Of a DNA stretch of 41,018 nt, positions 5,244 through 37,202 are shown in pieces. Positions within the stretch are counted from its first letter, which is position 1, and each line of letters begins with the position of its first letter. The notes beneath the pieces are model-generated. The model did not search any database. It saw only the letters and a program-made list of their open reading frames with translations, and was not told the DNA's origin. The stretch is from a virus. Its lineage: Duplodnaviria > Caudoviricetes. The stretch is taken from positions 1-41,018 of IMG/VR virus record IMGVR_UViG_3300012676_000002; one strand, 5' to 3'. The translations under genes and the position numbers were made by a program.

Positions 5244-6170
5244 ATGTCACGATTAACGAGATTGAACACGAGTCTTTCAAATCCAGCGAACAAAATGGGT
5301 ACCTACTTGGCTGATACCCTGAGCAACGCATTGGCGGGAAATCCGTCTGGAGACTCTTGGTATGTGGACACGGCGAAGGCACAAAGCGGCGTTGGGAATA
5401 GCTGGGATTCGGCTTTTAAGACAGTTGCAGAAGCCGTGTTGGCAGCTTCCGCTAATGACGTAATTTTCGTAGCTCCAGGTGCGTATGCTGAGAACGTGGT
5501 CATCCCTGTTACCAAGCCCAATCTCACAGTCATCGGTGCTGGTGGTCGAGGGTCTACCTTTATCCAAGCTTTGACTAACGGTGTGGCGCTAACTGTCCAC
5601 TCAAAGGATGTCACTGCTGTTAACATCGGATGTGAAGGTGATGGGACAGGTGGTGGTGCCCACATTCTCGGCCGCCGATTCCGGGGGATTGACTGCAAGT
5701 TTGAAGGGGGCGCTGACGCGCTCAAAGTCGGCCCTGCCAGTGTGGCCGCTCAAAACGCCACCAACGACAACGATGCGTCGGACAATATCTACGTTCGGTG
5801 TGAGATCGCCTGGTCTACGGATGGAGTGGTCCTTATGGCGTCTGATTACGGCGCGGTGACTCAGCCTCGGTTCTATGACTGCTGGTCACACGATTTGACC
5901 AATCATATTACTGAAGAGTTGCAAGCAGGGGCAACGGCGAGCATCATGTTTCGTGACTTGGAAGTTCACGCGCATCGGTTCTTGCGGGCTGAAGATGGCT
6001 CGGCGGCAACGGCGTATGTTGAACTGAATGCCAGCAACACGAATACCGGCCTCTTCTCGGACAGTGTGATTGCCCACGCGACGATGGCTTCCGCTGTTCT
6101 TCAGATCGGGACCGGCGTGTTGTGGGTCGGGAACAAGACTGAAGCTGGTGTGGGTGGAAGACCTGCGTAA
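5244..6170 (+). CDS. Pectin-lyase-like beta-helix protein (spike/depolymerase-like)
   Basis: WYVD..G.G.SWDSAFKTVAEAV...DVIFVAPGAYAENV cap motif of right-handed beta-helices; GGAG RBS. Confidence 0.75.
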   Translation: MSRLTRLNTSLSNPANKMGTYLADTLSNALAGNPSGDSWYVDTAKAQSGVGNSWDSAFKTVAEAVLAASANDVIFVAPGAYAENVVIPVTKPNLTVIGAGGRGSTFIQALTNGVALTVHSKDVTAVNIGCEGDGTGGGAHILGRRFRGIDCKFEGGADALKVGPASVAAQNATNDNDASDNIYVRCEIAWSTDGVVLMASDYGAVTQPRFYDCWSHDLTNHITEELQAGATASIMFRDLEVHAHRFLRAEDGSAATAYVELNASNTNTGLFSDSVIAHATMASAVLQIGTGVLWVGNKTEAGVGGRPA

Positions 6171-6259
6171 GAACAAATTATTTCATGACGTGCAGAGCAA
6201 CACACTCAAAGATGCGATTGAGACTGGTATTCCGACCAACTAATTTGGAGAGCTAAACT

Positions 6260-7588
6260 TTGGACTATCGCCCAAGAACAACGGCGGAAGCCGGTGCTAT
6301 TAGTCATGACGATCTCACAGGTGTAACCCCGGATCAACACCACGACCAAGAGCACACACATGATGGAGTTGATGGTTCGGGGGTTGTTGACCACGATAAT
6401 CTTACTAATGTTACACCAGACCAGCATCACGATCAGAGCCACAGCACACCGGACCACACGGATTTTGAATTGACCGATGGCGGTGGTTTAACACTGAATT
6501 TCGCAGCCGGTGTCTATCATATTGATAACTTGATATCAGTATTGTCGGCGGGAACTCTTGTTCTCCCAGATAATACGTCAGCTATGCACGTCTATCTTGG
6601 ACAATCAGGCGTTGCACAACAATTAATCGAATTTCCAACTGAATCGATTCCCCTAGGACTTGTATATACAAGTGGAGGGGTCATTACTAGCATCCAAGAT
6701 CGCAGATCGTGGTTAAGTGGGACAATGCTTATTGCCCACAATCACAGTAACTCACATATTCAAGGTCGTGATTTACTGGTTAGTCACACTGATTTAGATG
6801 ATGTCACAGCGAACCAACATCACAACCAAGCCCACGGGGCCACAGATCACGACCGGACTGTTGTTGACCCCTACCTTATTCCTATTGAAGATCAGTTTAA
6901 TCTCACGACTGAATTTCTCTTCCGAGCAACAGCCATCCTTGATAACGGCTTTGCGAGTTTTCTTTCTAGTGGAACCGTCGGTGGAGGTTTTGGAAATGAT
7001 GACGGGTTGTTATCAATTAATTCTGGGGGCACTGCAACCAACTATGCAACACTCGCCATTGCCTCTCCGACGGGAACAGCAAGGTCCTTAGCGTTATCTA
7101 GCACGTCTATCCACTTCAAAATCTATTTTGATTCGATCAATGCCGTGATCCAAAATATTAAAATCGTAGGGTTAGGTAGTACGACTACTATGGGTACCGG
7201 CTATCAGACCGCAGGAGCCAGCACTGGATGCTTTTTCCGGATTGATGCGACGGCCTCTGCAGTGAATTGGTTTGCTGTGACGAAAGACGGAACGGGGAGT
7301 GGGAATGAAACAACTACTAATACAGGAATCCTTGATAGAGTAGCAACGAGTTTGGCTGCTGACGGGCTCACGATTGAAATTGTTGCTACCAGCACGTCAG
7401 TATCCTACTACATGTCGCTGGGTGTCAATGTGGCTTCTCCGACGTTGATCGCCACACACACAACAAACATCCCAACTGCCGCATTGATTGCTCTGTTGGG
7501 GACCTACCAGAAAGTTACAATCGCTGCGAATAAGTCGATGGAAGTTCGGTGGTTGAAATTCAAATCTGCTCGGACCAACGTGCTATGA
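6260..7588 (+). CDS. Virion fibre-like protein with His-rich repeats
   Basis: Three H-x-x-L-x-x-VT-x-x-QHH-x-Q-x-H repeats and a beta-rich C-terminal domain; TTG start with GGAG RBS. Confidence 0.7.
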   Translation: MDYRPRTTAEAGAISHDDLTGVTPDQHHDQEHTHDGVDGSGVVDHDNLTNVTPDQHHDQSHSTPDHTDFELTDGGGLTLNFAAGVYHIDNLISVLSAGTLVLPDNTSAMHVYLGQSGVAQQLIEFPTESIPLGLVYTSGGVITSIQDRRSWLSGTMLIAHNHSNSHIQGRDLLVSHTDLDDVTANQHHNQAHGATDHDRTVVDPYLIPIEDQFNLTTEFLFRATAILDNGFASFLSSGTVGGGFGNDDGLLSINSGGTATNYATLAIASPTGTARSLALSSTSIHFKIYFDSINAVIQNIKIVGLGSTTTMGTGYQTAGASTGCFFRIDATASAVNWFAVTKDGTGSGNETTTNTGILDRVATSLAADGLTIEIVATSTSVSYYMSLGVNVASPTLIATHTTNIPTAALIALLGTYQKVTIAANKSMEVRWLKFKSARTNVL

Positions 7589-14113: not shown

Positions 14114-14827
14114 GTGGTAATCACGACACAGGACATTATCAATAGCACATTCAAGAAACTAGGAATCTTAGGTCGAGGGGAAACTCTCTCTGCTGATGAT
14201 TCCCAGGATGCGAAACGAGCATTGAATTTAATGCTGGCTTCATGGTCAATTCGGAATGTTGCAACTCTTGTCACTGCCAAAGATGAATTAACGCTAATTC
14301 CAAACCAACGAATCTACACAATTGGAATAACGGTAGGAGCAGATTTTAATACTCCGAGACCAAAGATGGTGTTTTATGCATCTCTCGAAGATGAAAATCA
14401 ATTCTTTCGTCCTATTGATGTTATTTCGGATGAACAGTATAGTTTGTACGGAGACCGACTGATTACTATTGGTGTTCCGAATCGAATGGTCTACGAAGCG
14501 ACACTGCCGAATGGTACGATTACGTTGTACTTCATTCCAGACAAACCGTACATATTACACATCGACAGTCAGAAAGCGTTTGCCGAAATTACTGCACTTG
14601 ATGCAGAATTTGATTTGGATGAAGCGTATCTCGAAGCGATCATCTATAATTTGGCGGTACGTTTGGCACCCGATTACGGGATCGTTCCTGCTCCGTCGAT
14701 TGCCGAGGCAGCCAATAGCTTATTTGACACGTTGCTGGGGTTCACTGCTCCAGATATGTCGGTCTTTCTTGATGTATCTGTGCGACGACCGAGAACACAA
14801 ACCATTTACTCAGGATATGACCCGTAA
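14114..14827 (+). CDS. Head-to-tail adaptor (P22 gp4-like)
   Basis: DII...LGIL..GET....D...ALNLML.SW and AIIYNLAVRLAPDYG motifs. Confidence 0.8.
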   Translation: MVITTQDIINSTFKKLGILGRGETLSADDSQDAKRALNLMLASWSIRNVATLVTAKDELTLIPNQRIYTIGITVGADFNTPRPKMVFYASLEDENQFFRPIDVISDEQYSLYGDRLITIGVPNRMVYEATLPNGTITLYFIPDKPYILHIDSQKAFAEITALDAEFDLDEAYLEAIIYNLAVRLAPDYGIVPAPSIAEAANSLFDTLLGFTAPDMSVFLDVSVRRPRTQTIYSGYDP

Positions 14828-16014
14828 TGAACCTTCAAGATTTCGTTGGGGGGTCCTACCCCGCACAATCGAAGAACGCGAACAACCAGCGCACGATTAA
14901 TTGGGTCCCAACGATTTCAGGCACTCCTGGTGCCGAAGGCAAAACGCCGCTCATTCTTGTTGGAGCACCGGGAATGGAATTGTGGAAGACGCTCGGAGAT
15001 CAGCCGATTCGGGGTCTTCACACAGTCGGTAATGTATTATATGCTGTGACAGGACAAACCGTTTACAAAGTTCTCAATAACAAAATTGCAACGAATATTG
15101 GAACGCTGGAAACTACAGGCGGCAAGGTGTGGATCGAACACAATGCCAACAATGAAGTAGGATTTGTCGATGGCAAGCGTCTCTACATTTACAACTCATT
15201 GACAGATACTTTTTTCCAACCATCACCACAGCCTGTACTCCAACCCACGTCGTTGATGTTTATCAATCAACGGTTCGTTGTGAGCATGGAAAATTCCATG
15301 TTTTTTGCGATCAGTGATATTAACAATGGAGCCGGATGGGACCCAACACAGATTGCGGCTGCTGAATCCGACCCAGATCCTCTTCAAGTGGTGTGGAATC
15401 TTCATCGCCAGATTTATTTGCTAGGGACGCAAACAACTGAAATTTGGTATGATGCTGGTACATCTCCCTTTCCATTCCAACCGACATCTGGCGTGATTGA
15501 TTGGGGGATTGTAGCAGTGAATAGCGCAGCACAAGTGGCTGATACCTTAGCCTGGTTGGGCATTCATAAAGACGGTGGAATTAGTGTGGTGGCAGCGAGT
15601 GGCCTCCAAGCAACAGTGATTTCGACACCAGGTCTTGAGGCGCGGTGGAGCGCCTACCGGACAGTCTCGGATGCGTTTGCGTTTTCGTACCGCCTGGATG
15701 GCAACGATTGTTATGTGATTACTTTTGGGGCCGGAGGAGAAACATTTATTTACGACTTTACAACCGCATTGTGGCACGAGCGGACCAGCTATGACATTGG
15801 AGCTTGGGTCTCGAACGAGGGCGTTCGTTTTGTCAATAAACAACTTGTGGGAGACCGGACCCAAGGCAACATCTACCGGATGTCTGCTAATATTTATCAT
15901 GAAAATGGTTCCCCTATCGTGAAAACTCGTCGCAGTCCGCACATTTGGAATGAGCGGAAGCGATTCACAGTCGCCGCGTTAGAAGTGGAGTTTGAAACGG
16001 GAGTGCTTTCCTAA
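14827..16014 (+). CDS. Tail hub / DNA stabilization protein (P22 gp10-like), N-terminal fragment
   Basis: GDQPIRG, AESDPD, TTEIWY, WHER and LVGD..GNIY motifs; ends at LEVEFETGV and lacks the usual C-terminal ~70 aa. Confidence 0.85.
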   Translation: MNLQDFVGGSYPAQSKNANNQRTINWVPTISGTPGAEGKTPLILVGAPGMELWKTLGDQPIRGLHTVGNVLYAVTGQTVYKVLNNKIATNIGTLETTGGKVWIEHNANNEVGFVDGKRLYIYNSLTDTFFQPSPQPVLQPTSLMFINQRFVVSMENSMFFAISDINNGAGWDPTQIAAAESDPDPLQVVWNLHRQIYLLGTQTTEIWYDAGTSPFPFQPTSGVIDWGIVAVNSAAQVADTLAWLGIHKDGGISVVAASGLQATVISTPGLEARWSAYRTVSDAFAFSYRLDGNDCYVITFGAGGETFIYDFTTALWHERTSYDIGAWVSNEGVRFVNKQLVGDRTQGNIYRMSANIYHENGSPIVKTRRSPHIWNERKRFTVAALEVEFETGVLS

Positions 16015-17228
16015 TGCGGTATCTTCTAGCTGGCAACATCACAGGAACGAATGGGGCCGGGAGACTAGCGTATAGCGACGATGGCACAGCGTTTATACCT
16101 TGTACACTGAACGCCACCCCTGCTACGGCATTTCATGCTGTTGCTGCCTCTGACACACTCTGTATCGCTATTGAGTTAGATAGCTCTAATGGTGATAGTT
16201 ATGTGTGGACTTCGTTGGACGACGGAATTACGTTCGATTATGTAGCGGATCTCTTAGGTATTGAAGTGTCTTCAGTCGTCTATGAGAATGGATTCTTCTA
16301 CGCTGTGGGAGTGAATAGCGGGACCAGTGCAGGAGTGATTTATCGTTCAGCAAACGGCACCGCATGGTCACTCGTACACACAGCGACAGCGAATAGTGAG
16401 TACACAGAAATTATCTTTGCTGAAAATCGCCTCGTTGCAGTAGGTGGAAACTTAACCAACAGTACTGGACTAGTATCTTACAGTACGAACGGGACTGTAT
16501 GGACGACGATTACGCCTGGTAGCCAGCAATTTGAACAAATTGTTTTTTCTACGGTTCTTGGTAGTTATGTGGCTGCATCCGTAGATTTTGTCGATGGTGC
16601 AGTAACTTCTCTGACAGTGAGCGACACTGGGGCTTCCTGGTCTCCCACAGCACTTTCCCAACCGGAAATCAATGAAGCCCGATGTATGGGAGTTGAAGCT
16701 GGGCTAGTGTTGTTTAGTCGCAAACAAAGTGGGCAAACTCCAATTATTTCAGCCACTCTTAATGGGATTTCAGTTGCCGCTACATCTCTTAATGTGGTAT
16801 GGACTTCCGCCAACACCATAAACAGAGTGTATCAAGCTGGTGGAGTGTGGTTTATTCTTGGCAGACGCACAGGCCTCCAGCCATTTTATTCTGCGCCCTC
16901 TCCCGTCTTGAATCTTGGGGTATATGATCTGACCTTAACAGCCCTGACCGGCTTGACAGGGTGGACGAATACCAGAGATGTCGTGGGATTTGATACCGAA
17001 CCGGCTGTGGTAATCAGTAATGTTGTAATCTCGAACATCACGGAGACCGACGCGCTGATTACTTGGGATACCGACGTACCAGCTACGACACAGGTCCAAT
17101 ATGGGACGACAGACGAGTACGGCACAGAAACAGTGCTCGACACAGACCTTGTTGAGGAACACGAAGTTCAACTGTCTGGCCTTCTGCCAGGAACAGTTTA
17201 CCACTTTGAACCTCTTTCGGTGGCATAA
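16014..17228 (+). CDS. Beta-propeller (Asp-box/BNR-like) protein with C-terminal FN3-like domain
   Basis: Repeated S-x-D/N-G-x-x-W/F Asp-boxes; ITWDTD.PATTQVQYG...HEVQLSGLLPGTVYHF. Confidence 0.8.
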   Translation: MRYLLAGNITGTNGAGRLAYSDDGTAFIPCTLNATPATAFHAVAASDTLCIAIELDSSNGDSYVWTSLDDGITFDYVADLLGIEVSSVVYENGFFYAVGVNSGTSAGVIYRSANGTAWSLVHTATANSEYTEIIFAENRLVAVGGNLTNSTGLVSYSTNGTVWTTITPGSQQFEQIVFSTVLGSYVAASVDFVDGAVTSLTVSDTGASWSPTALSQPEINEARCMGVEAGLVLFSRKQSGQTPIISATLNGISVAATSLNVVWTSANTINRVYQAGGVWFILGRRTGLQPFYSAPSPVLNLGVYDLTLTALTGLTGWTNTRDVVGFDTEPAVVISNVVISNITETDALITWDTDVPATTQVQYGTTDEYGTETVLDTDLVEEHEVQLSGLLPGTVYHFEPLSVA

Positions 17229-17477
17229 ATGGCAGATTTTACATTTACTACGCTGAGTATTGAACCTTCCGCACAGCTTCGTTGGTCAAAAGACGGCGGA
17301 CATGTGTGGTCAAACTGGGTAACAGTTAAACTGGGGCGCACAGGTGACCGTTATCGCAGAGCGATATGGCGAAGAATTGGATTAGCGCGAGATATTATGT
17401 TTGAAGTGCAAACAGCCGATGCAGTGAAGTCAGTCATGATCGGAGCATCAATAGATATTATGCCGGGGGATTCCTAA
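17229..17477 (+). CDS. gp10-like tail hub, C-terminal fragment
   Basis: LRWSKDGGHVWSN...G..G.RYRRAIWRRIG.ARD..FEV...D.VK matches the conserved C-terminus of gp10-like proteins. Confidence 0.8.
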   Translation: MADFTFTTLSIEPSAQLRWSKDGGHVWSNWVTVKLGRTGDRYRRAIWRRIGLARDIMFEVQTADAVKSVMIGASIDIMPGDS

Positions 17478-17692
17478 TGATTGATCTCCCAAATTTTAAT
17501 GTGACAGCCGTTCTCCAAACCGCTTCTGCAGGTTTGATTCTGTGGGCACTGAAGGTTGTGAAAGATGTTCTAGAAAAAGTGACATCTCTTAGCACATGGG
17601 CCATTGATCACGAAAAAAAGGATGATGAACGGTTTACGTTGCTCGTCGGTCGTAAAGCAGTAAAACGAAAGCGTACCCGTTCTGAGCGCTAA
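17477..17692 (+). CDS. Small single-TM protein (holin-like?)
   Basis: Hydrophobic N-terminal helix, HEKKDDERF and a basic C-terminus. Confidence 0.55.
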
Positions 17693-18927
17693 TGGCGAAT
17701 TTACCTCCTGTTCCACACAACACAGACTTTCAAGATAAGAAATCTGGGCGGATTACTCAACCGTGGCTACAGTGGTTGGAACTGCTTCGTGGGATTTTGA
17801 ATAGTGCATCGTCTGGTCTCGGATCAATTCTCCACAATGATTTGTTAGGTGTCACACCCGACCAACATCATGATAGAGAACACGAGCATACCGAATCTGA
17901 TGGATCAGGACGAGTAAGCTATCTCTCTCTGCTTGATGTACCAATAGGTGTAGAGGTTCATAGCAATACCTCTCATGTGACGACAGGATTCCCTGGAGAA
18001 AGTGTTCCTGGAGATGGCCCCAACCAAGGATCGTCACTTTCTGTTGCACGGCTGGATCATCAACACCAACGGGAATCGTTTGGAGTTCCCGGCCCGAGTA
18101 ATTTTCGAGATGTGGTCGCTGAAGGAGAATCATTAAGTGTAGCCCGCGCTGACCATCGACATGGACGCGAGCAAGTGACCTTCCCACTCCCTACGGATGG
18201 CGAAGACGGAGACCCAGGACCTCCTGGTCCTACGGGAACAGCCGGTCCTGCTGGTGCTACAGGTCCAACAGGACCTCCAGGTGCGACAGGGCCTAGCATC
18301 GGCCCTATGGGGCCTCCAGGATGGGATGCTGACCCTCCTGAAGAGCCTTTGATGATGTTTGGGCCAACAGGACCGTCGGGTCCTATTGGGTTGCAAGGAC
18401 CAACAGGAGCCCAAGGCCCAGCGGGACTTGATGGAGACTCCGACGAAGAACCCCCGCTAGTTTTAACACCGTACACTCCGCGGCAGCAATATGTACGGAT
18501 TGGCACAGTTGACGAATTAATTTCTACGACTGTATGGACAACGGCGACAGCCGCGTTATTTTCTAGCGCGGCATTGCGAGAAGTCAAAGTCGGGGATATC
18601 GTCATGGTGTATTGGAAGGTGAACAATACACACGGGGCAACGTCTGGTTTCCAAGAACTTGCTTTTTATGTATCAGCGGGGACTGGGACCTTATTAAATT
18701 TTCATAGCGCGGCTGGTGCTATTGCGACGACATCTCCAGGAACAGCGATTAACCGTACCGGCGTGTCTGGGGTGAGTGGTATTTGGAGAGACTCTGGTGT
18801 ACACCCCTGCTATTGTTCCGTAGCAGGAACCGTGACATTGAGTTTTACTGGAACGACAAGTGGCAGCAACGCTGCGGCGTCAACAACGACAGTACGGATT
18901 GAGTGGTATCGACCACTTATAGTCTAA
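17692..18927 (+). CDS. Tail needle/fibre with His-motifs and collagen-like GXY repeats
   Basis: [10 protein letters not shown]-terminus, VTPDQHH motif, two SLSVAR.DH.H repeats and GXY tracts. Confidence 0.8.
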
Positions 18928-28968: not shown

Positions 28969-29412
28969 TTACCTCCACAAATATTGTTTAATTACTTCAA
29001 GTAATTTTCCATTAGATTCAACTTTCCCAACAAATAAATTACAAGTACAACACAGTAACCCTCTTACAATATTAGTTTCGTGGTTATGATCTACATATAA
29101 TTTCTTTTTTTGACCACAAATTAAACATGCTCCACTTTGCTGCTGGCTTCTTTGTTCATATTCTTGTAAAGTCATATTATATTTGCGAAGTAGGTGCCCC
29201 TTGCGCCGCACCGCCTTCCCATGTTGGGTGTTGAAATATCGACGGGAATATTCTTTAATTATAGTCTGTCCCACAACAGTTTTACGCCACTGTTTTTGTT
29301 GATCTAAGTGACAACTTTTACACGAAGCGTGATGCTTATACTTACCCTCAGAATGCTTATAATACTCACTTAAATCTTTTACACAGTTACACTTTGTGCA
29401 AGTTTTTTGCAT
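28969..29412 (-). CDS. Endonuclease VII-family (likely homing) endonuclease
   Basis: LLRKY.MT..EY, CLICG, VDHNH...VRGLLC..CN; visibly AT-rich. Confidence 0.9.
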   Translation of the reverse strand: MQKTCTKCNCVKDLSEYYKHSEGKYKHHASCKSCHLDQQKQWRKTVVGQTIIKEYSRRYFNTQHGKAVRRKGHLLRKYNMTLQEYEQRSQQQSGACLICGQKKKLYVDHNHETNIVRGLLCCTCNLFVGKVESNGKLLEVIKQYLWR

Positions 29413-29421
29413 AAAAATATA

Positions 29422-29880
29422 TTACCTTCGAGAAAAAACCATCGTTGCCATACTCAACCTCGAACGAAGAATGCTATCAGCTTCAGAATTGTCGGCAAAT
29501 ACATTCAACAATCGAATAAACTCAGCGTGATGAAAGTTTCCCTTTTGGCGATTACACTTTTTATGAACAATGTGGAGATTGTGCAATGCGTTCATGTGCT
29601 CAGGCAATCCGTGTCGTTCCTTCGCCACCTTATGGTCTATTGAAATTTCTTCAAGCGTCAACGGTTCCAAGCAATACGGGCACTGCTTGGTCTCCAATGC
29701 TTTGTTTACGAGGTCTTCCACGTCTTTTCTTGATGGGACCGGCTGCTTGGTCCGTCGAAGGGACCCCAGCAAGTTCTGGATCTTGTATGGCAGAGGGTTG
29801 TTCTTGCGCCACGTCCGTTTGTGCTCCCTGTTTCTTGTCACTGATTTGGAACTTCGGTATCTCACTAGTCCACCCTTCAA
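29422..29880 (-). CDS. HNH endonuclease
   Basis: CPYC...SIDHKV...NL...HKKCNRQKG; start may be GTG near 29865. Confidence 0.85.
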   Translation of the reverse strand: MKGGLVRYRSSKSVTRNREHKRTWRKNNPLPYKIQNLLGSLRRTKQPVPSRKDVEDLVNKALETKQCPYCLEPLTLEEISIDHKVAKERHGLPEHMNALHNLHIVHKKCNRQKGNFHHAEFIRLLNVFADNSEADSILRSRLSMATMVFSRR

Positions 29881-30646
29881 GTTGAATTAGATTGTCTTCA
29901 ACCGCAGCCGGATCACTAAAGCACCAGTGCTTGCTGAAGGTACATGACTTACACCATGACTTCCCCTCCGGGGAAGCCGGATCAAGAACTGCAGGAAGTT
30001 CAGAACGACTGTAGTAGCCTCGAACATCATCCCACCAAGCACGAACCTCTGCAAGTAATTCGGGCGTCACGTCCACCGTAAATGCTCGAATGGCTGCGTC
30101 TTCTTTTGAGAAGTACACCACCTTCAATTTTTGAAGGTTGTATTTCGTATTCATGTCATAGTAGGTGACAGCTTGGTACACATTGTGCTTTGCTGGCTTT
30201 TTGTCTTTAAGCACCATCTTCCAGAAGATACCAGTACCCTTAGTCTTAAACTCATACAGGACTAGATTACTGTCATCATCTCGAAGGATGTCATCAAACG
30301 CTCCAGACCGATCCCCAGACCCGTAAGGGGCTAGAAACTCTTCTGCAGCAACCAATCGTCCAGATTTCTTCAGAAGGTCTTGAATGGCTTGGTGGATTAC
30401 ATTGCCAATCCAGAATATCCGCTTCATCTTGACGTCGTGATCTTCTTCTTTCGCGTTTAACCGATTGAGAATTGCGGCTCTCTTACAAAAACCAGCATTA
30501 CTGACAGCAAACCACTCCCGTCGTTTCCGTCGTGATTTCCTGGCTTGATAGGTTTTGTCGATTTCTTCGTCAATCAGCCGTTCAGCCAGATCCCAGTATT
30601 TAACCTCTGGTGGGGTTGCAGTTTCTCCTGTGATTTCCTCGCTCAT
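29651..30646 (-). CDS. Cas4-like PD-(D/E)xK exonuclease
   Basis: N-terminal C, G..IH, G..D, EFKT, QAVTY and C-x2-C-x6-C motifs. Confidence 0.85.
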   Translation of the reverse strand: MSEEITGETATPPEVKYWDLAERLIDEEIDKTYQARKSRRKRREWFAVSNAGFCKRAAILNRLNAKEEDHDVKMKRIFWIGNVIHQAIQDLLKKSGRLVAAEEFLAPYGSGDRSGAFDDILRDDDSNLVLYEFKTKGTGIFWKMVLKDKKPAKHNVYQAVTYYDMNTKYNLQKLKVVYFSKEDAAIRAFTVDVTPELLAEVRAWWDDVRGYYSRSELPAVLDPASPEGKSWCKSCTFSKHWCFSDPAAVEDNLIQLEGWTSEIPKFQISDKKQGAQTDVAQEQPSAIQDPELAGVPSTDQAAGPIKKRRGRPRKQSIGDQAVPVLLGTVDA

Positions 30647-30822
30647 ACACTCGGCTCAGCTTCCTCTTCCTCGACATACTCTTCGAGATGTAGGGTGAGA
30701 AGTTTCTCTTGTGGATCGTAGACCGCCGCAACAGACGTAAACACAAACTCCTGCTGTCCCACACGGACCAGCACTTCCCCTCCAAGACTTCGGAAGAATG
30801 CGGCTAATTCTATTGGATTCAT
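30643..30822 (-). CDS. Small acidic hypothetical protein (59 aa)
   Basis: Hand-translated MNPIELAAFF...; ATGA overlaps at both ends. Confidence 0.65.
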   Translation of the reverse strand: MNPIELAAFFRSLGGEVLVRVGQQEFVFTSVAAVYDPQEKLLTLHLEEYVEEEEAEPSV

Positions 30823-30971
30823 GCGCGTAGAACCAGATAACCTGTACGCTCTTCTACAAAATGCTGAACATCAATAGTAGAAGCATCTTCTTCAGTATTA
30901 AAATCTCCAAACTGCACAACATAATCGTCTGGTACTTTTTCAATAATCGCATGTAACTGTTTAACAGTCAT
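30819..30971 (-). CDS. Small hypothetical protein (MTVKQL...)
   Basis: GGAG RBS; MTVKQL....P.D..V motif. Confidence 0.65.
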   Translation of the reverse strand: MTVKQLHAIIEKVPDDYVVQFGDFNTEEDASTIDVQHFVEERTGYLVLRA

Positions 30972-31239
30972 ACACATCTCCATTCTCTTGAATTTTCTGG
31001 TCTTCATAAACCGAAATAGCCCTTCGGTACAATTCAAATTTACAACACTCCAATGCTCCAATGAGTGTATTATACTCTTCATACCGGCCAGGGCGGGTCG
31101 AAAGCAATATTTTTGTGAGCAAATAATTCACATCTCCCCCAGAAATATGACTATGATGTTTTGTTTCTGTGAGAAGTGTACAGAGTGCATCTAACTCTTT
31201 GGACCAAAATTCTTTGTCTGATCGTTTCAAATACGGCAT
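30961..31239 (-). CDS. Conserved phage protein (DUF6899-like)
   Basis: MPY...G.VNY...IGALECCK.ELYRR...YED.KI.ENGDVY. Confidence 0.75.
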   Translation of the reverse strand: MPYLKRSDKEFWSKELDALCTLLTETKHHSHISGGDVNYLLTKILLSTRPGRYEEYNTLIGALECCKFELYRRAISVYEDQKIQENGDVYDC

Positions 31240-31808
31240 TAGGCAGCCGTAGGAGCAACAGGAGCCTCAACCAAGGCTTCAGCCAACTTCTTCACACCTT
31301 CCTCGTTGACAGGATCGATGGTTCCGCGCAACACATAATTGGTCAGGTGATCCGCAAGGATCACAACACGATTCACACGCTTCAAGTCATCCAACTTCTT
31401 TTTAGCATCTGGGTTCGAGTAGACCGAGTTCACAATGTCTGCAGCCACTTTCACAGCCGTCTGCCGGACAATCTGTAATTGAACCTCAGTCCGCTGTCCA
31501 CCCTGGACCGGAACATCAGCCCCTCCCGCAGTCTGTGCAACAGTCTGCGGTCGAGGAATCGGAAGGTTGTCGCACTTCTCAATACTCTCAACCTTCCAAT
31601 ACCCCTTGGTGTCTTTGATGCAATTAACCTTCACCCCTTGGCCAATTGGAAGCTCGGACACCAGCTTCTTATCGAAGCCAAGACCTAACTTCTGACCACC
31701 CACCAACATATTGTGAATGGTCCAATTGCCCTGTTTATTCAACTGGGCTGCGGTCTTCGACTCAACACCCTCATATTTCCCGTAACGAACTTCAGTTTCA
31801 CCGGCCAC
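31239..31808 (-). CDS. Putative single-stranded DNA-binding protein
   Basis: OB-like N-terminus, flexible linker and IVRQ helix; GGAGG RBS before GTG 31808; downstream of a strong promoter. Confidence 0.5.
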   Translation of the reverse strand: MAGETEVRYGKYEGVESKTAAQLNKQGNWTIHNMLVGGQKLGLGFDKKLVSELPIGQGVKVNCIKDTKGYWKVESIEKCDNLPIPRPQTVAQTAGGADVPVQGGQRTEVQLQIVRQTAVKVAADIVNSVYSNPDAKKKLDDLKRVNRVVILADHLTNYVLRGTIDPVNEEGVKKLAEALVEAPVAPTAA

Positions 31809-32145
31809 TGTAGCGTTCCTCCAGTTTGTGTTTGTTTGCTTCCATAATCTCACTCAGTGTGAGCCCTAATTCCGTCGCTATCTGCGTGAAGTACCACAGT
31901 ACGTCACCCAATTCCAACTTCACCTTATTTTTTTCCTCCTGGGTGAGGGTAATATCACTTCTTCGTGCAAACTTCTTGAAAATCTCAGTCACTTCTCCAC
32001 ATTCCCCATTCAAACCAAGAAGTAAGTAGAACGGGAATGTTTGTACTGCCCTCTGGCGTAAATATACAGGATCAAACATATCTATATAACTCTGCGGATA
32101 CTTCGCTGTACTTTTACTCCATACTTGATACTCTTCGTTGGTCAT
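31798..32145 (-). CDS. MazG-like nucleotide pyrophosphohydrolase
   Basis: LGLNGECGEV....KK, ELGDVLWY and N..KL..RY motifs. Confidence 0.9.
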   Translation of the reverse strand: MTNEEYQVWSKSTAKYPQSYIDMFDPVYLRQRAVQTFPFYLLLGLNGECGEVTEIFKKFARRSDITLTQEEKNKVKLELGDVLWYFTQIATELGLTLSEIMEANKHKLEERYSGR

Positions 32146-32336
32146 TTTACAGGTTCCGCAGCCAAACGGAATTTCAACTCAAGTCCTTTCGTATAAACAC
32201 TACATTTTCCATCGACGGAAAATTCCGCAACTTCTAATTCCGTTGTCGCCACACAAAAAATAGGCACTCCGTCATCATAATCTGTAATGTACACAAACAC
32301 TTCACTAGGAAAAGATATTTTACTTTTTTTAGCCAT
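32142..32336 (-). CDS. Hypothetical protein
   Basis: GGGAG RBS; first gene after the promoter. Confidence 0.65.
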   Translation of the reverse strand: MAKKSKISFPSEVFVYITDYDDGVPIFCVATTELEVAEFSVDGKCSVYTKGLELKFRLAAEPVK

Positions 32337-32359
32337 TAGATAATCTCCCATTGTGTGAT

Positions 32360-32388
32360 ATTATACCACGATTTCCAACCGCTGTCAA
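32360..32388 (-). promoter_or_regulatory. Perfect-consensus sigma70 promoter
   Basis: TTGACA-17bp-TATAAT with extended TG. Confidence 0.85.
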
Positions 32389-32570
32389 GGAAAATTTACT
32401 CCCACAGCCCCATACCAACATCCAAATTGCCAATTAAATGTAAATCCGGGAGAAAAAACAGAATAACTGGTTTCTGCGTACCATTCAAATGAGAATCCAA
32501 ACTCCCAAATACCCACAGTTGTTCCTTTGTAAGCAAAGAAGTGCATATTATTCCACTTTCTTTTGTTCAA
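32385..32570 (-). CDS. Small aromatic-rich hypothetical protein
   Basis: ORF following the polymerase gene. Confidence 0.45.
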   Translation of the reverse strand: MNKRKWNNMHFFAYKGTTVGIWEFGFSFEWYAETSYSVFSPGFTFNWQFGCWYGAVGVNFP

Positions 32571-34215
32571 ATAGATTAGGCCCAGACTTCATATCCGCCT
32601 TGAACGGATACACCAAATTCTTCCCAAAATACTCTTTGAAATATTCTGCAATGCGACTGTATTCTTGTTTTAAGAGTGTCTTGACCTCCCTTCCCTCTTC
32701 AGGAGGGGCGTCAAACGTGATATCATCATGTGCGTCTAGCATCGGCCTGGTTCTAAATCCTGCACTCTCTAGGGCTCTCCACGTCTTGATCATCATGATT
32801 TTGTTGAACACTGTTCCCATGTGTTGGATTTTGTCGTTGTACGCCTCGGTGAAGGACGAGGTAAATCGCCGTTTCCCGGTATATGGACACACAACCACTC
32901 CGTTTCGGATGATCTCTCGCTCGCACGAATCAAAGTATCCACCCATTTCGGGGTACCGTATATCGAGTAGATCATGACGAATCTCAACGGCTTGTTTAGG
33001 TGACAGTCCGTACTCGTGTGTGAGTGTGTACCCCTTTCCCCCAAAAAAGACACTGAAGTTCACGTTTTTGGCTCGGGTCCTGTTCGGGATCACAGGAAAT
33101 CGCTTTAATGTCTCGCTGTGAAGGTCTTTTCCTGTCAGAAGATCATCGAGCAGGAATCTCTTGCCTGTAACATAGAACGCCATTTCAGCATTCAGAGCAA
33201 TTTCCAATTGCATCCAGTCGCAGGAAATCAGTTCCCCTCCCGGATACTTCGAGACAATGCACTTTTTGAACTCCGATGTGCCTCCCCGTGGCATAATCTG
33301 AATAAACTTCTCAGACATACGCCCTGTTGCAGGAGCTTTACTTTCCCCATCTGAAGAACCAGCCAGCTTATAATCTGGATAATAGACTCCATCTATCAAA
33401 ACTGCCAAAAATCCGGCACCATATGTTTGGCTTTGCTTCGCAGCGGAGCGGTAATCCAACAACACTTTGGCGCTAGGATGCTCTATTTTTAATAGGGCCT
33501 TCTTATCAACCTGGCCTCTTTCCGTGCCTGTACGGGCAAGCTGGATGCCTTGTTGGGTATAAAACTCGCCAACCTGGAGGTTACTTTGCCAGTCTATCTC
33601 AGCAAAAGCCAGTAATTCCTTCTTTTTAGCCTCTAGGATCTCATCGTGACCATTCAAAAAGGCAGCGTGGGCCTCCAGGTCCACCTTCATACCCTCCCGT
33701 TCCATCTCAGTCATGACTCCGATGAAGTCAGACATTAGATTTTGAAGAGGAAGTAGCCCCAACTTCACAATCCACGGTTGGACTCGATCTGCGATCCACT
33801 CCGTGGAACAGAGGTCGTGGCGATTGTACCACTTTAACGTATCAAGGTCTTCCCAATACTCTTCATCGAAGTTTACTAAATACTTCCAGTTGGGAAATGG
33901 GTAGCCCCACATCCTTGCCAAATCGACCAAGTGGTAGCTTGGCAAATCTGATCTGATTAAGTGGCAATCAACTTCAACGTCTCGGAATCGGGTCTTGGGA
34001 CCAAAGCGGTAGCCAGCTTGTCTACACGCCTTCGTGTCATATTTGGTGTTGGCCCCTACCACCACACAATCATCAATAACCCGCGAGTGATTGTCTTGTG
34101 TAACGTTAGGACCCGACTTCCACCCCACAAACAGCACTTGGAAGTCCGGGTGTCTCGCTTGCAACTGAAACGGCTGTGTTCCCTTCGTCTCGCAGTCCAA
34201 GATTATCTGTCTCAC
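32548..34215 (-). CDS. polA: Family A DNA polymerase with 3'-5' exonuclease
   Basis: Exo motifs DCET, N.KYD and YNRHD; TGRMS; motif A DWMQLE, motif B R..AK..NF and motif C HDD; start GTG 34215 or TTG 34233. Confidence 0.92.
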   Translation of the reverse strand: MRQIILDCETKGTQPFQLQARHPDFQVLFVGWKSGPNVTQDNHSRVIDDCVVVGANTKYDTKACRQAGYRFGPKTRFRDVEVDCHLIRSDLPSYHLVDLARMWGYPFPNWKYLVNFDEEYWEDLDTLKWYNRHDLCSTEWIADRVQPWIVKLGLLPLQNLMSDFIGVMTEMEREGMKVDLEAHAAFLNGHDEILEAKKKELLAFAEIDWQSNLQVGEFYTQQGIQLARTGTERGQVDKKALLKIEHPSAKVLLDYRSAAKQSQTYGAGFLAVLIDGVYYPDYKLAGSSDGESKAPATGRMSEKFIQIMPRGGTSEFKKCIVSKYPGGELISCDWMQLEIALNAEMAFYVTGKRFLLDDLLTGKDLHSETLKRFPVIPNRTRAKNVNFSVFFGGKGYTLTHEYGLSPKQAVEIRHDLLDIRYPEMGGYFDSCEREIIRNGVVVCPYTGKRRFTSSFTEAYNDKIQHMGTVFNKIMMIKTWRALESAGFRTRPMLDAHDDITFDAPPEEGREVKTLLKQEYSRIAEYFKEYFGKNLVYPFKADMKSGPNLFEQKKVE

Positions 34216-35107
34216 TCTTCGGCCCCAATCCAATTTCTTGTTTGTAACGTTGGAAGATCTTATAGCTCAGCAACTTCTTCGCATTGGGCCAGTACTTCTG
34301 GTAAAGAAATTCTTTGATTGTATCCAGCGACTCAGAGGCAACATCATTCTGTACAACCTTAATCAGGTTCCCGATATCTGTGACTGTTCCTGTGTATGTT
34401 TCATTCTCTTTCAAACGCTGTACACCCTTGCGGAATCGGGCTTCAGGAAACACAATCTGACACAGTGCCTCTTCCAAGGAATCCCCAATAGCATACGTCT
34501 TCTTAAAATCTTCTTTGAAATCCGCATTCACGATCTTGACAAAGAGCGGTTGACCGTAGGAACTGAGGCGGTCATAGTTCTTAATCACCACACCTTCAAC
34601 AGGACCACCCAACATTGATCCGGCTGTATTCAACGCTGTCAAGTGGTCATTCACATCCACGAGGGTCTCAAAATATGTACAAGAGACACTCTGAATAAAT
34701 GATAGGTTGCGGTCTTCCAAAATAGAATTTCTCACGGTAGGAACTATAAATACATACTCTCCGTCTTGACGTTTATAGGAAAAATCAAATAACACAAACG
34801 GTTCTTTACGACCATAAACCAACACATTGTGGTTGTTACAGAACTCTCCCCACAACGTTTCTCCGGGTTGGAGCCCCCACAGTAAGGCTTGTTTGTGTTC
34901 CTCGAACCACAGAAGGAAGAATCCAAACTGCTTTGAATTCTGGTCCAACCATCGCATCCGAGAAGCCAAGCGAAGCCCGTCTTCTGTTCGGTGAATCGAC
35001 ACGTTGCTGCCGTCCAGTTTTTCAGACACGAAGACACCTGAGTCTTTTAGGTCTTCAGTCCCTTTGTAACCTAACGCATGAATCTTTGGATAGGGAATAA
35101 ATTCCAT
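34106..35107 (-). CDS. ATP-dependent RNA ligase (Rnl2-like)
   Basis: YPKI, EKLDGSN, WGEF, FVLFD, EGVVIK and VKIV nucleotidyltransferase motifs; AGGAG RBS. Confidence 0.85.
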   Translation of the reverse strand: MEFIPYPKIHALGYKGTEDLKDSGVFVSEKLDGSNVSIHRTEDGLRLASRMRWLDQNSKQFGFFLLWFEEHKQALLWGLQPGETLWGEFCNNHNVLVYGRKEPFVLFDFSYKRQDGEYVFIVPTVRNSILEDRNLSFIQSVSCTYFETLVDVNDHLTALNTAGSMLGGPVEGVVIKNYDRLSSYGQPLFVKIVNADFKEDFKKTYAIGDSLEEALCQIVFPEARFRKGVQRLKENETYTGTVTDIGNLIKVVQNDVASESLDTIKEFLYQKYWPNAKKLLSYKIFQRYKQEIGLGPKSETDNLGLRDEGNTAVSVASETPGLPSAVCGVEVGS

Positions 35108-35142
35108 CTCACATCTCCTGTTAAAAATGGTCGGGGTGCGTC

Positions 35143-35577
35143 CTACTGTTTAGATTCTACTACTTCCCAAATACATGCTTTCGCTTGCTTTCCTGTCCAA
35201 CAACCACCTGATTTAACGTGTTCCTGTGTTCGACAGTGGTAGCAGTATTCAAATCTCCGACCTTGGTAGGAGGGAGGAAGAGACTTGACCACCACACAGA
35301 GCACGACATCTGAGTTGTGTGCGATTTGTAGATTCCGATATTTGAAACCTCCAGGCCCATCCCATTGATTGGTACTCGCTGGGAAGATAAGTGTAGGAAT
35401 GGATAGCTCGTGAGCAATCTCTTCAGCCCAAATATCGACTCCCCCAAGAGGGGATCGACCAGAAACTACCAACTGAGCAGAATAAGCCTTAATATTGGCT
35501 CGAATCCGTGCCTTTGCAAGTAATGCTGTCTCGGGCGTAAATTTGTCGGCTCCGTGCCCCACAATTCCAAGTTTCAT
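35143..35577 (-). CDS. SLOG-superfamily (YspA/DprA-like) protein
   Basis: GIVG, VVSG...GGVDIWAE, RN.QIA..SD and SGG..T motifs. Confidence 0.7.
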   Translation of the reverse strand: MKLGIVGHGADKFTPETALLAKARIRANIKAYSAQLVVSGRSPLGGVDIWAEEIAHELSIPTLIFPASTNQWDGPGGFKYRNLQIAHNSDVVLCVVVKSLPPSYQGRRFEYCYHCRTQEHVKSGGCWTGKQAKACIWEVVESKQ

Positions 35578-35603
35578 TCGTGAACCTCAAATTTGTAGAA
35601 AGT

Positions 35604-37202
35604 TTAGAATTCTTTGAACACACACTTCCCCCAATCGACCTGAAATGTTTGGTACATTTGGCTATATTCTCTTTTGAATTTCATCCCTGTAAGATAGAGC
35701 TTTGTCCCATCATATTGATCTCTAGCCAAACCAAGCATCGTATCAACAAGTGCCATTTTATACATTTTAGCTTCCGCAACCATATAGTCCCAAATTCTAT
35801 AAGGATTCGCGCTTTGCTTGGTTTGCAAAATAGTAATGTGGTCCGTCACGAGCATAGCACAGTCATGTGCTACAGCAATATCTTTGAGCAACTCTGTCAC
35901 ATCTTTTGCTTGAAATCGAGACTCTGAACCTTTATTTGTACTCAACACTGGAATGCGAGAAAAATAATCTATAACCACAAACGAGGGTCGAACCTTGCTA
36001 ATAGCGTTTTGAATTTCAACGAGTCCGGTTTTACGCTCTCTCGCGTTCAAGAAATATACATCTGACAAACCGGGTTCTGTAAAGAGCGTGGTATACCGCT
36101 TTTTTAACGCTCTGAAACTATCCTCGTAGTGGACGACAAGTACATTATATCCTTGCTTCACAGCATGAGCAGCAAGCGCACAAGAAAGCGACGTTTTCCC
36201 TGACTCTTGTTTAGCTACCAAAAAAGCCAACTCACCCAAACCAAACCCTCCGAAGAGATATTTATTTAGGAAGTTTAGGGGGGTAGGGACCACTTCGATA
36301 TCTGGGATTTCCACTTGCTGCAAATCCGAAAAAGAAAATAACGCAGGAAGTAACGGTCTGCTAGGATTCGTAAGAATCAATTGCCCGTCCCCCGGTGAGT
36401 CTTCCCCTACCCCTCCGGGGTTCATTCCGGCCTCGACAGTAGGGCTCTCCACCTGTGCGCCAGGTTCTACACTGACTTCCTGCGTTATTACTGGATTCTC
36501 AGGTTCATATCTCATGATCGACTTCGTGATCCTTTGTAAATCCTCGTCAGACTTTGGAGGATCACACCGTTGATTTTCGATTTGCAATGCAGCATAAATT
36601 GCTGCTTCACTCATTCCTCTGCGCCTCATACTTCCAGCAATAGACGTGAGAAACGTATCCCGCTGCCCTTTGGGAATTAACTCACCTTCATTATACACCA
36701 CAGTAGGTACTTTTGTCAAGCGTTCATATAAACTATTTGGGAAACTCGGCAACTGGTCATCGTAGTGTTCCCAAACATATTCTTTCCCTGTATCCGGGTG
36801 AATAGATGATGGCCCGACCACTTGTCCACCGTCTGCTCGAATGTCCAACCCAGGGCCAAGTTTGCCCGCTGAGTTTCGGAGTGGGCCTTGTGTCGGATAC
36901 CTGAAGTAGTAGTGGAACCCCCCGGAACCTGTACGAACGCACGGAATCACACTCAATGGCAACCCAAGGGTCGCAAGAGATTCTAAACCTCCACTCTTGA
37001 TATCCACATCCAGCACAGCCAAATCTGAGATACGACCCGTGCGAATCCCAAAGTTCCCGCGTTCGGCAATTTTCACTGCCTCTTCTTTGGTGGTTTTGGG
37101 GTGGTTCGTCCAATCCTTTTCAATGGGAATCTTCCCATTTAAGGCGACAATGGACCAGCCACGACGGATGCATAACTCGGCTTGCGTTGGATTTGCCACC
37201 AT
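35604..37202 (-). CDS. Bifunctional primase-polymerase with PriCT and SF4-like helicase
   Basis: NFGIRTG, VLDVD, TGSGGFHYYF, DIRADGG; G.RD..L...AG PriCT; SGKT Walker A and VVIDY Walker B. Confidence 0.9.
   Translation of the reverse strand: MVANPTQAELCIRRGWSIVALNGKIPIEKDWTNHPKTTKEEAVKIAERGNFGIRTGRISDLAVLDVDIKSGGLESLATLGLPLSVIPCVRTGSGGFHYYFRYPTQGPLRNSAGKLGPGLDIRADGGQVVGPSSIHPDTGKEYVWEHYDDQLPSFPNSLYERLTKVPTVVYNEGELIPKGQRDTFLTSIAGSMRRRGMSEAAIYAALQIENQRCDPPKSDEDLQRITKSIMRYEPENPVITQEVSVEPGAQVESPTVEAGMNPGGVGEDSPGDGQLILTNPSRPLLPALFSFSDLQQVEIPDIEVVPTPLNFLNKYLFGGFGLGELAFLVAKQESGKTSLSCALAAHAVKQGYNVLVVHYEDSFRALKKRYTTLFTEPGLSDVYFLNARERKTGLVEIQNAISKVRPSFVVIDYFSRIPVLSTNKGSESRFQAKDVTELLKDIAVAHDCAMLVTDHITILQTKQSANPYRIWDYMVAEAKMYKMALVDTMLGLARDQYDGTKLYLTGMKFKREYSQMYQTFQVDWGKCVFKEF

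Follow-up and report, generated by a model that had tools for sequence, protein, structure and literature searches.

The closest described systems are podophages whose tail hub is divided between genes. In the parts of the A1002 cryo-EM report drawn on here, gp42 is completed by strand complementation from gp39, the C-terminal hub chain, and fibres gp40 and gp41 dock on the gp39 N-terminal extension by augmented beta-sheets (PMC13730344). For phage phiRIO-1, the sections of the report used here describe tube B halves, gp44 and gp40, that SDS-PAGE and mass spectrometry resolve as separate polypeptides; the genes for two virion proteins lie between theirs (PMC4819975). Split hubs, and beta-augmentation docking on a split hub, are already published. 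Donor-strand complementation is likewise familiar from chaperone-usher pili and TasA. We found no paper on a phage tail in which the gene that follows supplies the strand completing an FN3 domain, in a search of main texts, few of them from subscription journals; the HFTV1 paper makes no mention of FN3 or of donor-strand complementation or augmentation.

The window, the whole 41,018-nucleotide stretch analyzed here, is a complete virus record of 41 kb, bounded by direct terminal repeats, and carries gp10C only once. It encodes a P22-like podophage with portal, scaffold, coat, gp4 adaptor and ejection genes, and the runs that contain it are labelled as sediment or freshwater sediment metagenomes. 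The two gp10 halves lie 1.2 kb apart in different frames (Table 1). Only the downstream junction was part of the original prediction; a second cut lies at 16012-16016, so that the hub spans three genes. Elsewhere in the genome, a collagen-repeat tail fibre gene lies two ORFs downstream of gp10C (17692-18927), and two long ORFs sit between the small and large terminase genes (5244-7588), the first with a weak pectinesterase-like N-terminal match and the second with no family. A minus-strand replication block (28969-37202) encodes DNA polymerase A, a prim-pol helicase, an RNA ligase, a Cas4-like nuclease and two endonuclease VII/HNH genes.

Table 1. Features of the divided hub locus, in positions of the window.
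Feature	Positions	Strand	Match
P22 gp4-like head-tail adaptor (context)	14114..14827	+	Pfam P22_Tail-4 E 2.7e-6; PHROG 637 Ad3
gp10N, N-terminal 395 aa of P22 gp10-type hub, ending at the variable loop (...FETGVLS)	14827..16014	+	PHROG 578 Hc3 profile 7-398, E 1.5e-86
Junction 1, overlapping stop-start TAATG, -1 frame change	16012..16016	+	
Insert part 1, BNR/YCF48-like beta-propeller, residues 1 to ~325, predicted fold	16014..16990	+	
Insert part 2, FN3 (Pur_ac_phosph_N/fn3 type), strands A-F only	16995..17225	+	
GGTGG, Shine-Dalgarno-like site for gp10C	17219..17223	+	
Junction 2, in-frame TAA (17226-17228) directly followed by ATG (17229)	17226..17231	+	
MADFTFTT, C-terminal half of FN3 strand G, gp10C N-terminus; candidate donor strand	17229..17252	+	
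gp10C core, C-terminal 74 aa of hub (LSIEP...)	17253..17477	+	PHROG 578 profile 404-472, E 5.8e-11

The 82-residue product of 17229-17477 had been called a C-terminal fragment of gp10, and profile matching bears this out. The PHROG 578 / PF11134 hub profile is complete over two ORFs, with positions 7-398 in gp10N and 404-472 in gp10C. A profile of 40 relatives matches P22 gp10 and Sf6 gp8 (E<1e-27), and the hub genes follow the gp4 adaptor and precede the ejection genes, as in the P22-like module. In this phage, the P22 gp10-type hub is not a single polypeptide. Each of the seven closest gp10 relatives, one of them a 272-aa fragment, is a single short-loop chain, and gp10N is 58-75% identical to intact hubs of 469-478 aa. 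The gp10C core is 65% identical to P0009 and matches residues 367-424 of the Pam1 hub (7eeq). Between V and LEP, P0004 and P0009 carry four residues. The window has one LS ahead of the insert and another following the peptide; every hub residue is therefore kept. The eight extra residues of gp10C, MADFTFTT, are absent from intact gp10 relatives. Loose ends at 17277-17320 in runs X2 and X3 translate to the P0009 short-loop sequence, which suggests that these sediment samples also contain a relative with an intact hub (75% identical in gp10N).

The insert ORF (16014-17228, 404 aa) ends in TVYHFEPLSVA. Pfam fn3 covers its residues 335-399, equivalent to positions 4-65 of 84 in the profile; therefore, the last strand is absent from the insert ORF. 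This strand had been proposed to be the MADFTFTT of gp10C. Ten bacterial loci with a related FN3 gave 19 domains, 16 scored and 3 unscorable. In all 16 scored domains, strand F is followed by a turn and then by a final F-x-T strand, which in several is SGDFTFTT or SGDYTFTT, and the presence of the motif after strand F in 16/16 supports the proposal. That MADFTFTT makes up the whole final strand held only for its C-terminal half. The distance from the conserved Tyr to the Phe is 15 in the window (stop counted) versus 20-22 in 16/16 homologs, leaving the junction 5-7 codons shorter than in intact homologs. Four residues after the Tyr stands Pro400, where 16/16 homologs have Ala, Val, Ile, Leu or Met; this replacement of an aliphatic core residue may be decay. 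The shortened distance and Pro400 together identify MADFTFTT as the C-terminal half of strand G, while the F-G turn and the first half of the strand are in neither ORF. The cut falls in the F-G loop, and both strand-G Phe residues stay on gp10C. The invariant FN3 residues G37, L63, Y69 and F84 are retained, and Met occurs at the gp10C start position in 0/15 FN3 homologs. Motif [DE][FYL][TV]F[TAQS]T is found once in the 82,032 six-frame positions of the window. A looser strand motif, run over 18 structural ORFs, matches at this place only; judged by motif, no other peptide among them could supply the strand.

Structure prediction agrees with the expectation that the peptide would complete the domain. 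In an alignment-based model read through the stop, the FN3 is complete at pLDDT 92.5, with the gp10C peptide (pLDDT 95) as its last strand, E82-85. This model aligns end to end with a solved FN3 (Z 11.3, rmsd 2.0 over 82 residues). The seven-strand sandwich with its Trp, Tyr, Leu and Tyr-corner residues is present only once the peptide is added. Both an acceptor sandwich without one strand and a separate ORF starting with that strand are found here. Because the model was built in cis with a homolog alignment, it shows fit, not inter-chain binding. A single-sequence model of FN3 plus gp10C through the stop reached pLDDT 31, and a predicted complex between gp10C and the FN3 lacking its last strand scored 0.01 against a mark of 0.32 in a run whose controls did not fold.

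The TAA is followed directly by ATG with no change of frame, as had been read from the sequence: translation of 16014-17477 gives ...LSGLLPGTVYHFEPLSVA*MADFTFTTLSIEPSAQLRWSKDGG..., the asterisk marking the stop. GGTGG, 5 nt before this ATG, had been taken as a ribosome-binding site favoring independent initiation. Its duplex energy supports this: with a generic anti-SD, it scores -6.8 kcal/mol, and 17 other structural-operon starts score -0.7 to -12.1. At both junctions the start lies on or adjoins a stop, as it does at 14827, 17477 and 17692, and the SD-like sites are of ordinary strength. Hairpins over the two start sites were not above shuffles (z -1.04 and -0.05), and the last 90 nt of gp10N contain no canonical slippery heptamer. 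At 17221-17234, TAAA lies between two copies of TGGCA, a 5-nt direct repeat that may have arisen when a small duplication produced the junction, or by chance.

The original prediction would have fallen if the TAA were a sequencing error or a private mutation. Contigs of runs X2, X3, X5 and X6 bridge the TAA with 0 differences, so it is not an assembly error; among the contigs and loci searched, the arrangement was seen in one near-clonal population. An X7 contig also agrees at the TAA, with only ~30 letters on one side, and contigs of X2, X5 and X8 bridge the upstream junction without differences. Junctions are identical in runs from 2017, 2018 and 2025. Because every bridging contig is near-identical to the window, these data indicate that the allele is fixed within a single phage population (2017-2025) and do not speak to conservation between diverged phages. 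The sole variant listed inside the insert is 16269 T>G (Ser to Ala), in one low-depth X4 contig. Intron-like excision was considered, as removing 16012-17252 would restore the frame; it was rejected because the DNA contigs of 8 runs contain no such joint and the insert encodes folded domains. An alternative genetic code was ruled out, TAA being the common stop.

The inserted ORF is intact over 404 codons, with no internal stop or frameshift and a GC3 of 0.43, versus 0.38-0.57 in its neighbors. Its propeller model (Atlas) has a pTM of 0.71 and a TM of 0.56-0.62 to propeller clusters, and a Pfam DUF6242 match in this part falls below the cut-off. The protein is probably an adhesin that binds the host. 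No relatives of the insert were found in viral contigs, GenBank phages or fetched proteins. One 16-residue match in viral contigs was set aside because it looked like chance on translation.

We also examined the loop across the family. Within the 150 best gp10C matches, 13 of 56 full-length hubs carry 100-543 aa in the loop; by Pfam, loop appendages include LamG, CBM and GDSL. More in-loop inserts came from a search of longer proteins (for example, P0082 and P0086), and the intact 756-aa hub at L004:1016-3286 is also enlarged, in frame, by a long insertion at this loop. Lacking any gp10N are 31 of the 150 best gp10C representatives, query included, many of which may be contig-edge fragments. 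Six gp10N-less clusters lie on 22-41 kb contigs, four of them with several same-length members. Appendage-gp10C fusions occur in nature in P0136 and P0153; in P0136, which has no gp10N, gp10C directly follows an FN3. A split at the loop was confirmed in DNA in Xylella phage Xfas53, between gp36 and gp37, in two records (GQ421471 and MT084350). Xfas53 gp37 (L169:1558-3701, L171:1558-3701), carries no annotation beyond conserved or hypothetical protein but corresponds to the C-terminal part of the phage's gp10 hub.

Splits are nevertheless rare among IMG/VR gp10 loci: searches found one at the loop in 0/120, 0/21 and 0/81 loci; 40 of the 120 had at most 300 nt upstream. The 21 came from a scan for the strand-G motif before the gp10C core, in its GAC-codon form only (25 loci, 21 gp10, none split). 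The 81 came from a TAATG-enriched scan of 42/64 parts (116 loci, 81 gp10C), in which 78 were intact and 3 open to the locus edge. Among 289 loci, an FN3 profile matched none other than the 10 from which it was built. These pattern-based, partial searches turned up no second genome with a G-less FN3 beside a G-strand-gp10C. Pattern searches also gave no DNA context for the free gp10C candidates of the P0181 and P0152 groups, so these split forms are known from protein records. P0181 and P0241-P0243 are four 87-aa gp10C proteins with one common start; their N-terminus has an alternating strand-like pattern (ADIEVTT in P0181 and P0242), which makes them a candidate second donor-strand lineage. 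Eight proteins of 540-640 aa (P0127, P0134, P0148, P0151, P0158, P0174, P0200 and P0229) join a non-hub N-terminal part to the last ~110 gp10 residues, a second recurring cut site ~40 residues earlier, and some are on 30-34 kb contigs. In L032, the gp10 gene has a frame break near profile position 258, which marks either a further site of splitting or an error.

A tree of 48 chosen gp10C parts over 69 columns, with most forks unresolved and long branches, places the window among six intact relatives (95/80 branch). A single clade of eight split forms is rejected (p-AU 0.004). From these two results, the cut looks recurrent and, here, recent.

We give a probability of roughly one in two to the reading that three separately made proteins assemble here, with gp10C completing the hub and its first strand tethering the FN3 in trans. 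The tail-hub gene would have been cut into gp10N and gp10C around the propeller-FN3 gene, and the three products would be translated separately, coupled at the stop-start junctions. By analogy with A1002 and phiRIO-1, gp10C would complete the apical/platform beta-sandwich of gp10N. In Sf6, according to the part of the report used here, the apical sandwich is built from N- and C-terminal extensions (PMC9728967). That gp10C complements gp10N in the hub is, by this analogy, very probable. The first eight residues of gp10C would extend out of what was once the loop and occupy the FN3 groove left vacant by the missing last strand. Propellers would face outward on the hub, up to six per tail, with a virion location and a presumptive role in host binding. 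We hold more tentatively that this is a split-FN3 tag, in which an 82-aa gp10C would complete two folds and mount an exchangeable propeller adhesin non-covalently on a P22-type tail. Judging from Xfas53 gp36 and gp37, a free gp10C is tolerated, and the appendages of other hubs mark the loop as a place where domains are added. Because the donor is only half a strand G, affinity could be low. The absence of a second genome with this arrangement from the loci searched and the intact, short-loop hubs of 7/7 close relatives also count against the tether.

The junction may instead be a leftover of gene fission. An ancestral fusion of the insert to gp10C would have broken, and the restart would have fallen inside strand G by chance. 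The hub would work as gp10N plus gp10C, with the propeller protein detached, decaying or attached elsewhere. As gp10C would be essential, only breaks with a restart upstream of it would have survived. The junction that is 5-7 codons short, the Pro at a core position and the confinement to one near-clonal population all fit this history, as do the lack of the insert in close relatives and the bare gp10C of Xfas53. However, the 404 codons have stayed free of stops and frameshifts with genome-like codon use, the invariant FN3 core is retained, and DFTFTT is a perfect consensus match. The clean stop-start at 16012-16016 argues for selection on insert expression. On balance we consider a fission leftover the main rival but less likely than the tether, and even then the locus would document recurrent, independent gp10 fission at one loop.

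Readthrough of the TAA, raised in the original prediction as the other way to join the two parts, would put a minor propeller-FN3-gp10C fusion on some of six subunits, with free gp10C in the rest. We keep it as a rival because a short-loop fusion models well (pLDDT 92.5); the frames are continuous across the TAA, and natural appendage-gp10C fusions exist (P0136 and P0153). There is also a precedent in recoding, which by frameshift adds Ig/FN3 domains to other phage structural proteins, according to the portion of that paper used here (PMC9022992). Yet no positive sign of readthrough emerged: TAA is the usual stop, ending 17/18 structural ORFs scored, and its TAA-A context is common to 6/18. 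The window has 0 tRNA genes and no stable structure 3' of the stop (z +0.73), and the SD-like site ahead of the ATG points to initiation. UAA is, moreover, generally the least leaky stop codon. These data make readthrough improbable. Least probable by far is a broken hub gene in a defective phage, or a stop that is an assembly error. Such damage would suit an arrangement seen in one population only, but the junctions are identical in the 2017, 2018 and 2025 runs, which largely refutes error; the genome is complete, with direct terminal repeats and no other gp10C, starts lie exactly at both stops, and all gp10 residues are kept.

With the tether in trans as the preferred reading, we compared the locus with known systems. 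P22 gp10, Sf6 gp8 and Pam1 gp8 (PDB 8tvr, 7sg7 and 7eeq) share its profile and gene position; there, however, the hub is a single chain with a short loop. Xfas53 has a PHROG 578-type hub cut at the same loop, with an overlapping stop-start and a 72-aa free gp10C. It differs in that its appendage (an He_PIG Ig and one more domain) is fused to gp10N and its gp10C has no extra strand, and it is known from annotation. The hub-equivalent of Pseudoalteromonas phage phiRIO-1 is also split by an inserted module. It belongs to another homology group with another cut site (35 + 44 kDa), and the parts of its report used here propose no attachment mechanism.

As described in the part of its report used here, Pseudomonas podophage A1002 is alike in having a two-chain hub, with an N chain of 398 aa versus 395 here, and proteins numbered between the halves that dock on the C chain, gene adjacency being taken from those numbers. 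Two hub genes with a gene between them are thus found in both. The long rope with many fibre-dimer sites is not found here: gp39 is 620 aa, contributes propeller blades and forms a 300-A rope on which dimers can dock at 11 sites, whereas the C chain of the window is 82 aa and its 8-residue extension is the docking protein's own missing FN3 strand. A1002 is absent from the matches of the 40-relative hub profile. As in chaperone-usher pili and TasA, the N-terminal strand of one protein would complete a sandwich that has no last strand. In contrast to those systems, it would do so as a one-to-one tag and not as a polymer, with no known chaperone and a half-length strand. If the tether is real, podophages could swap or titrate surface domains while leaving the essential hub untouched, and the two partners would make a compact natural tag-catcher pair. 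The locus would then represent the split-hub design known from the A1002 structure at its smallest, and would bring pilus-like strand donation to a phage tail with a 77-residue domain and an 8-residue peptide.
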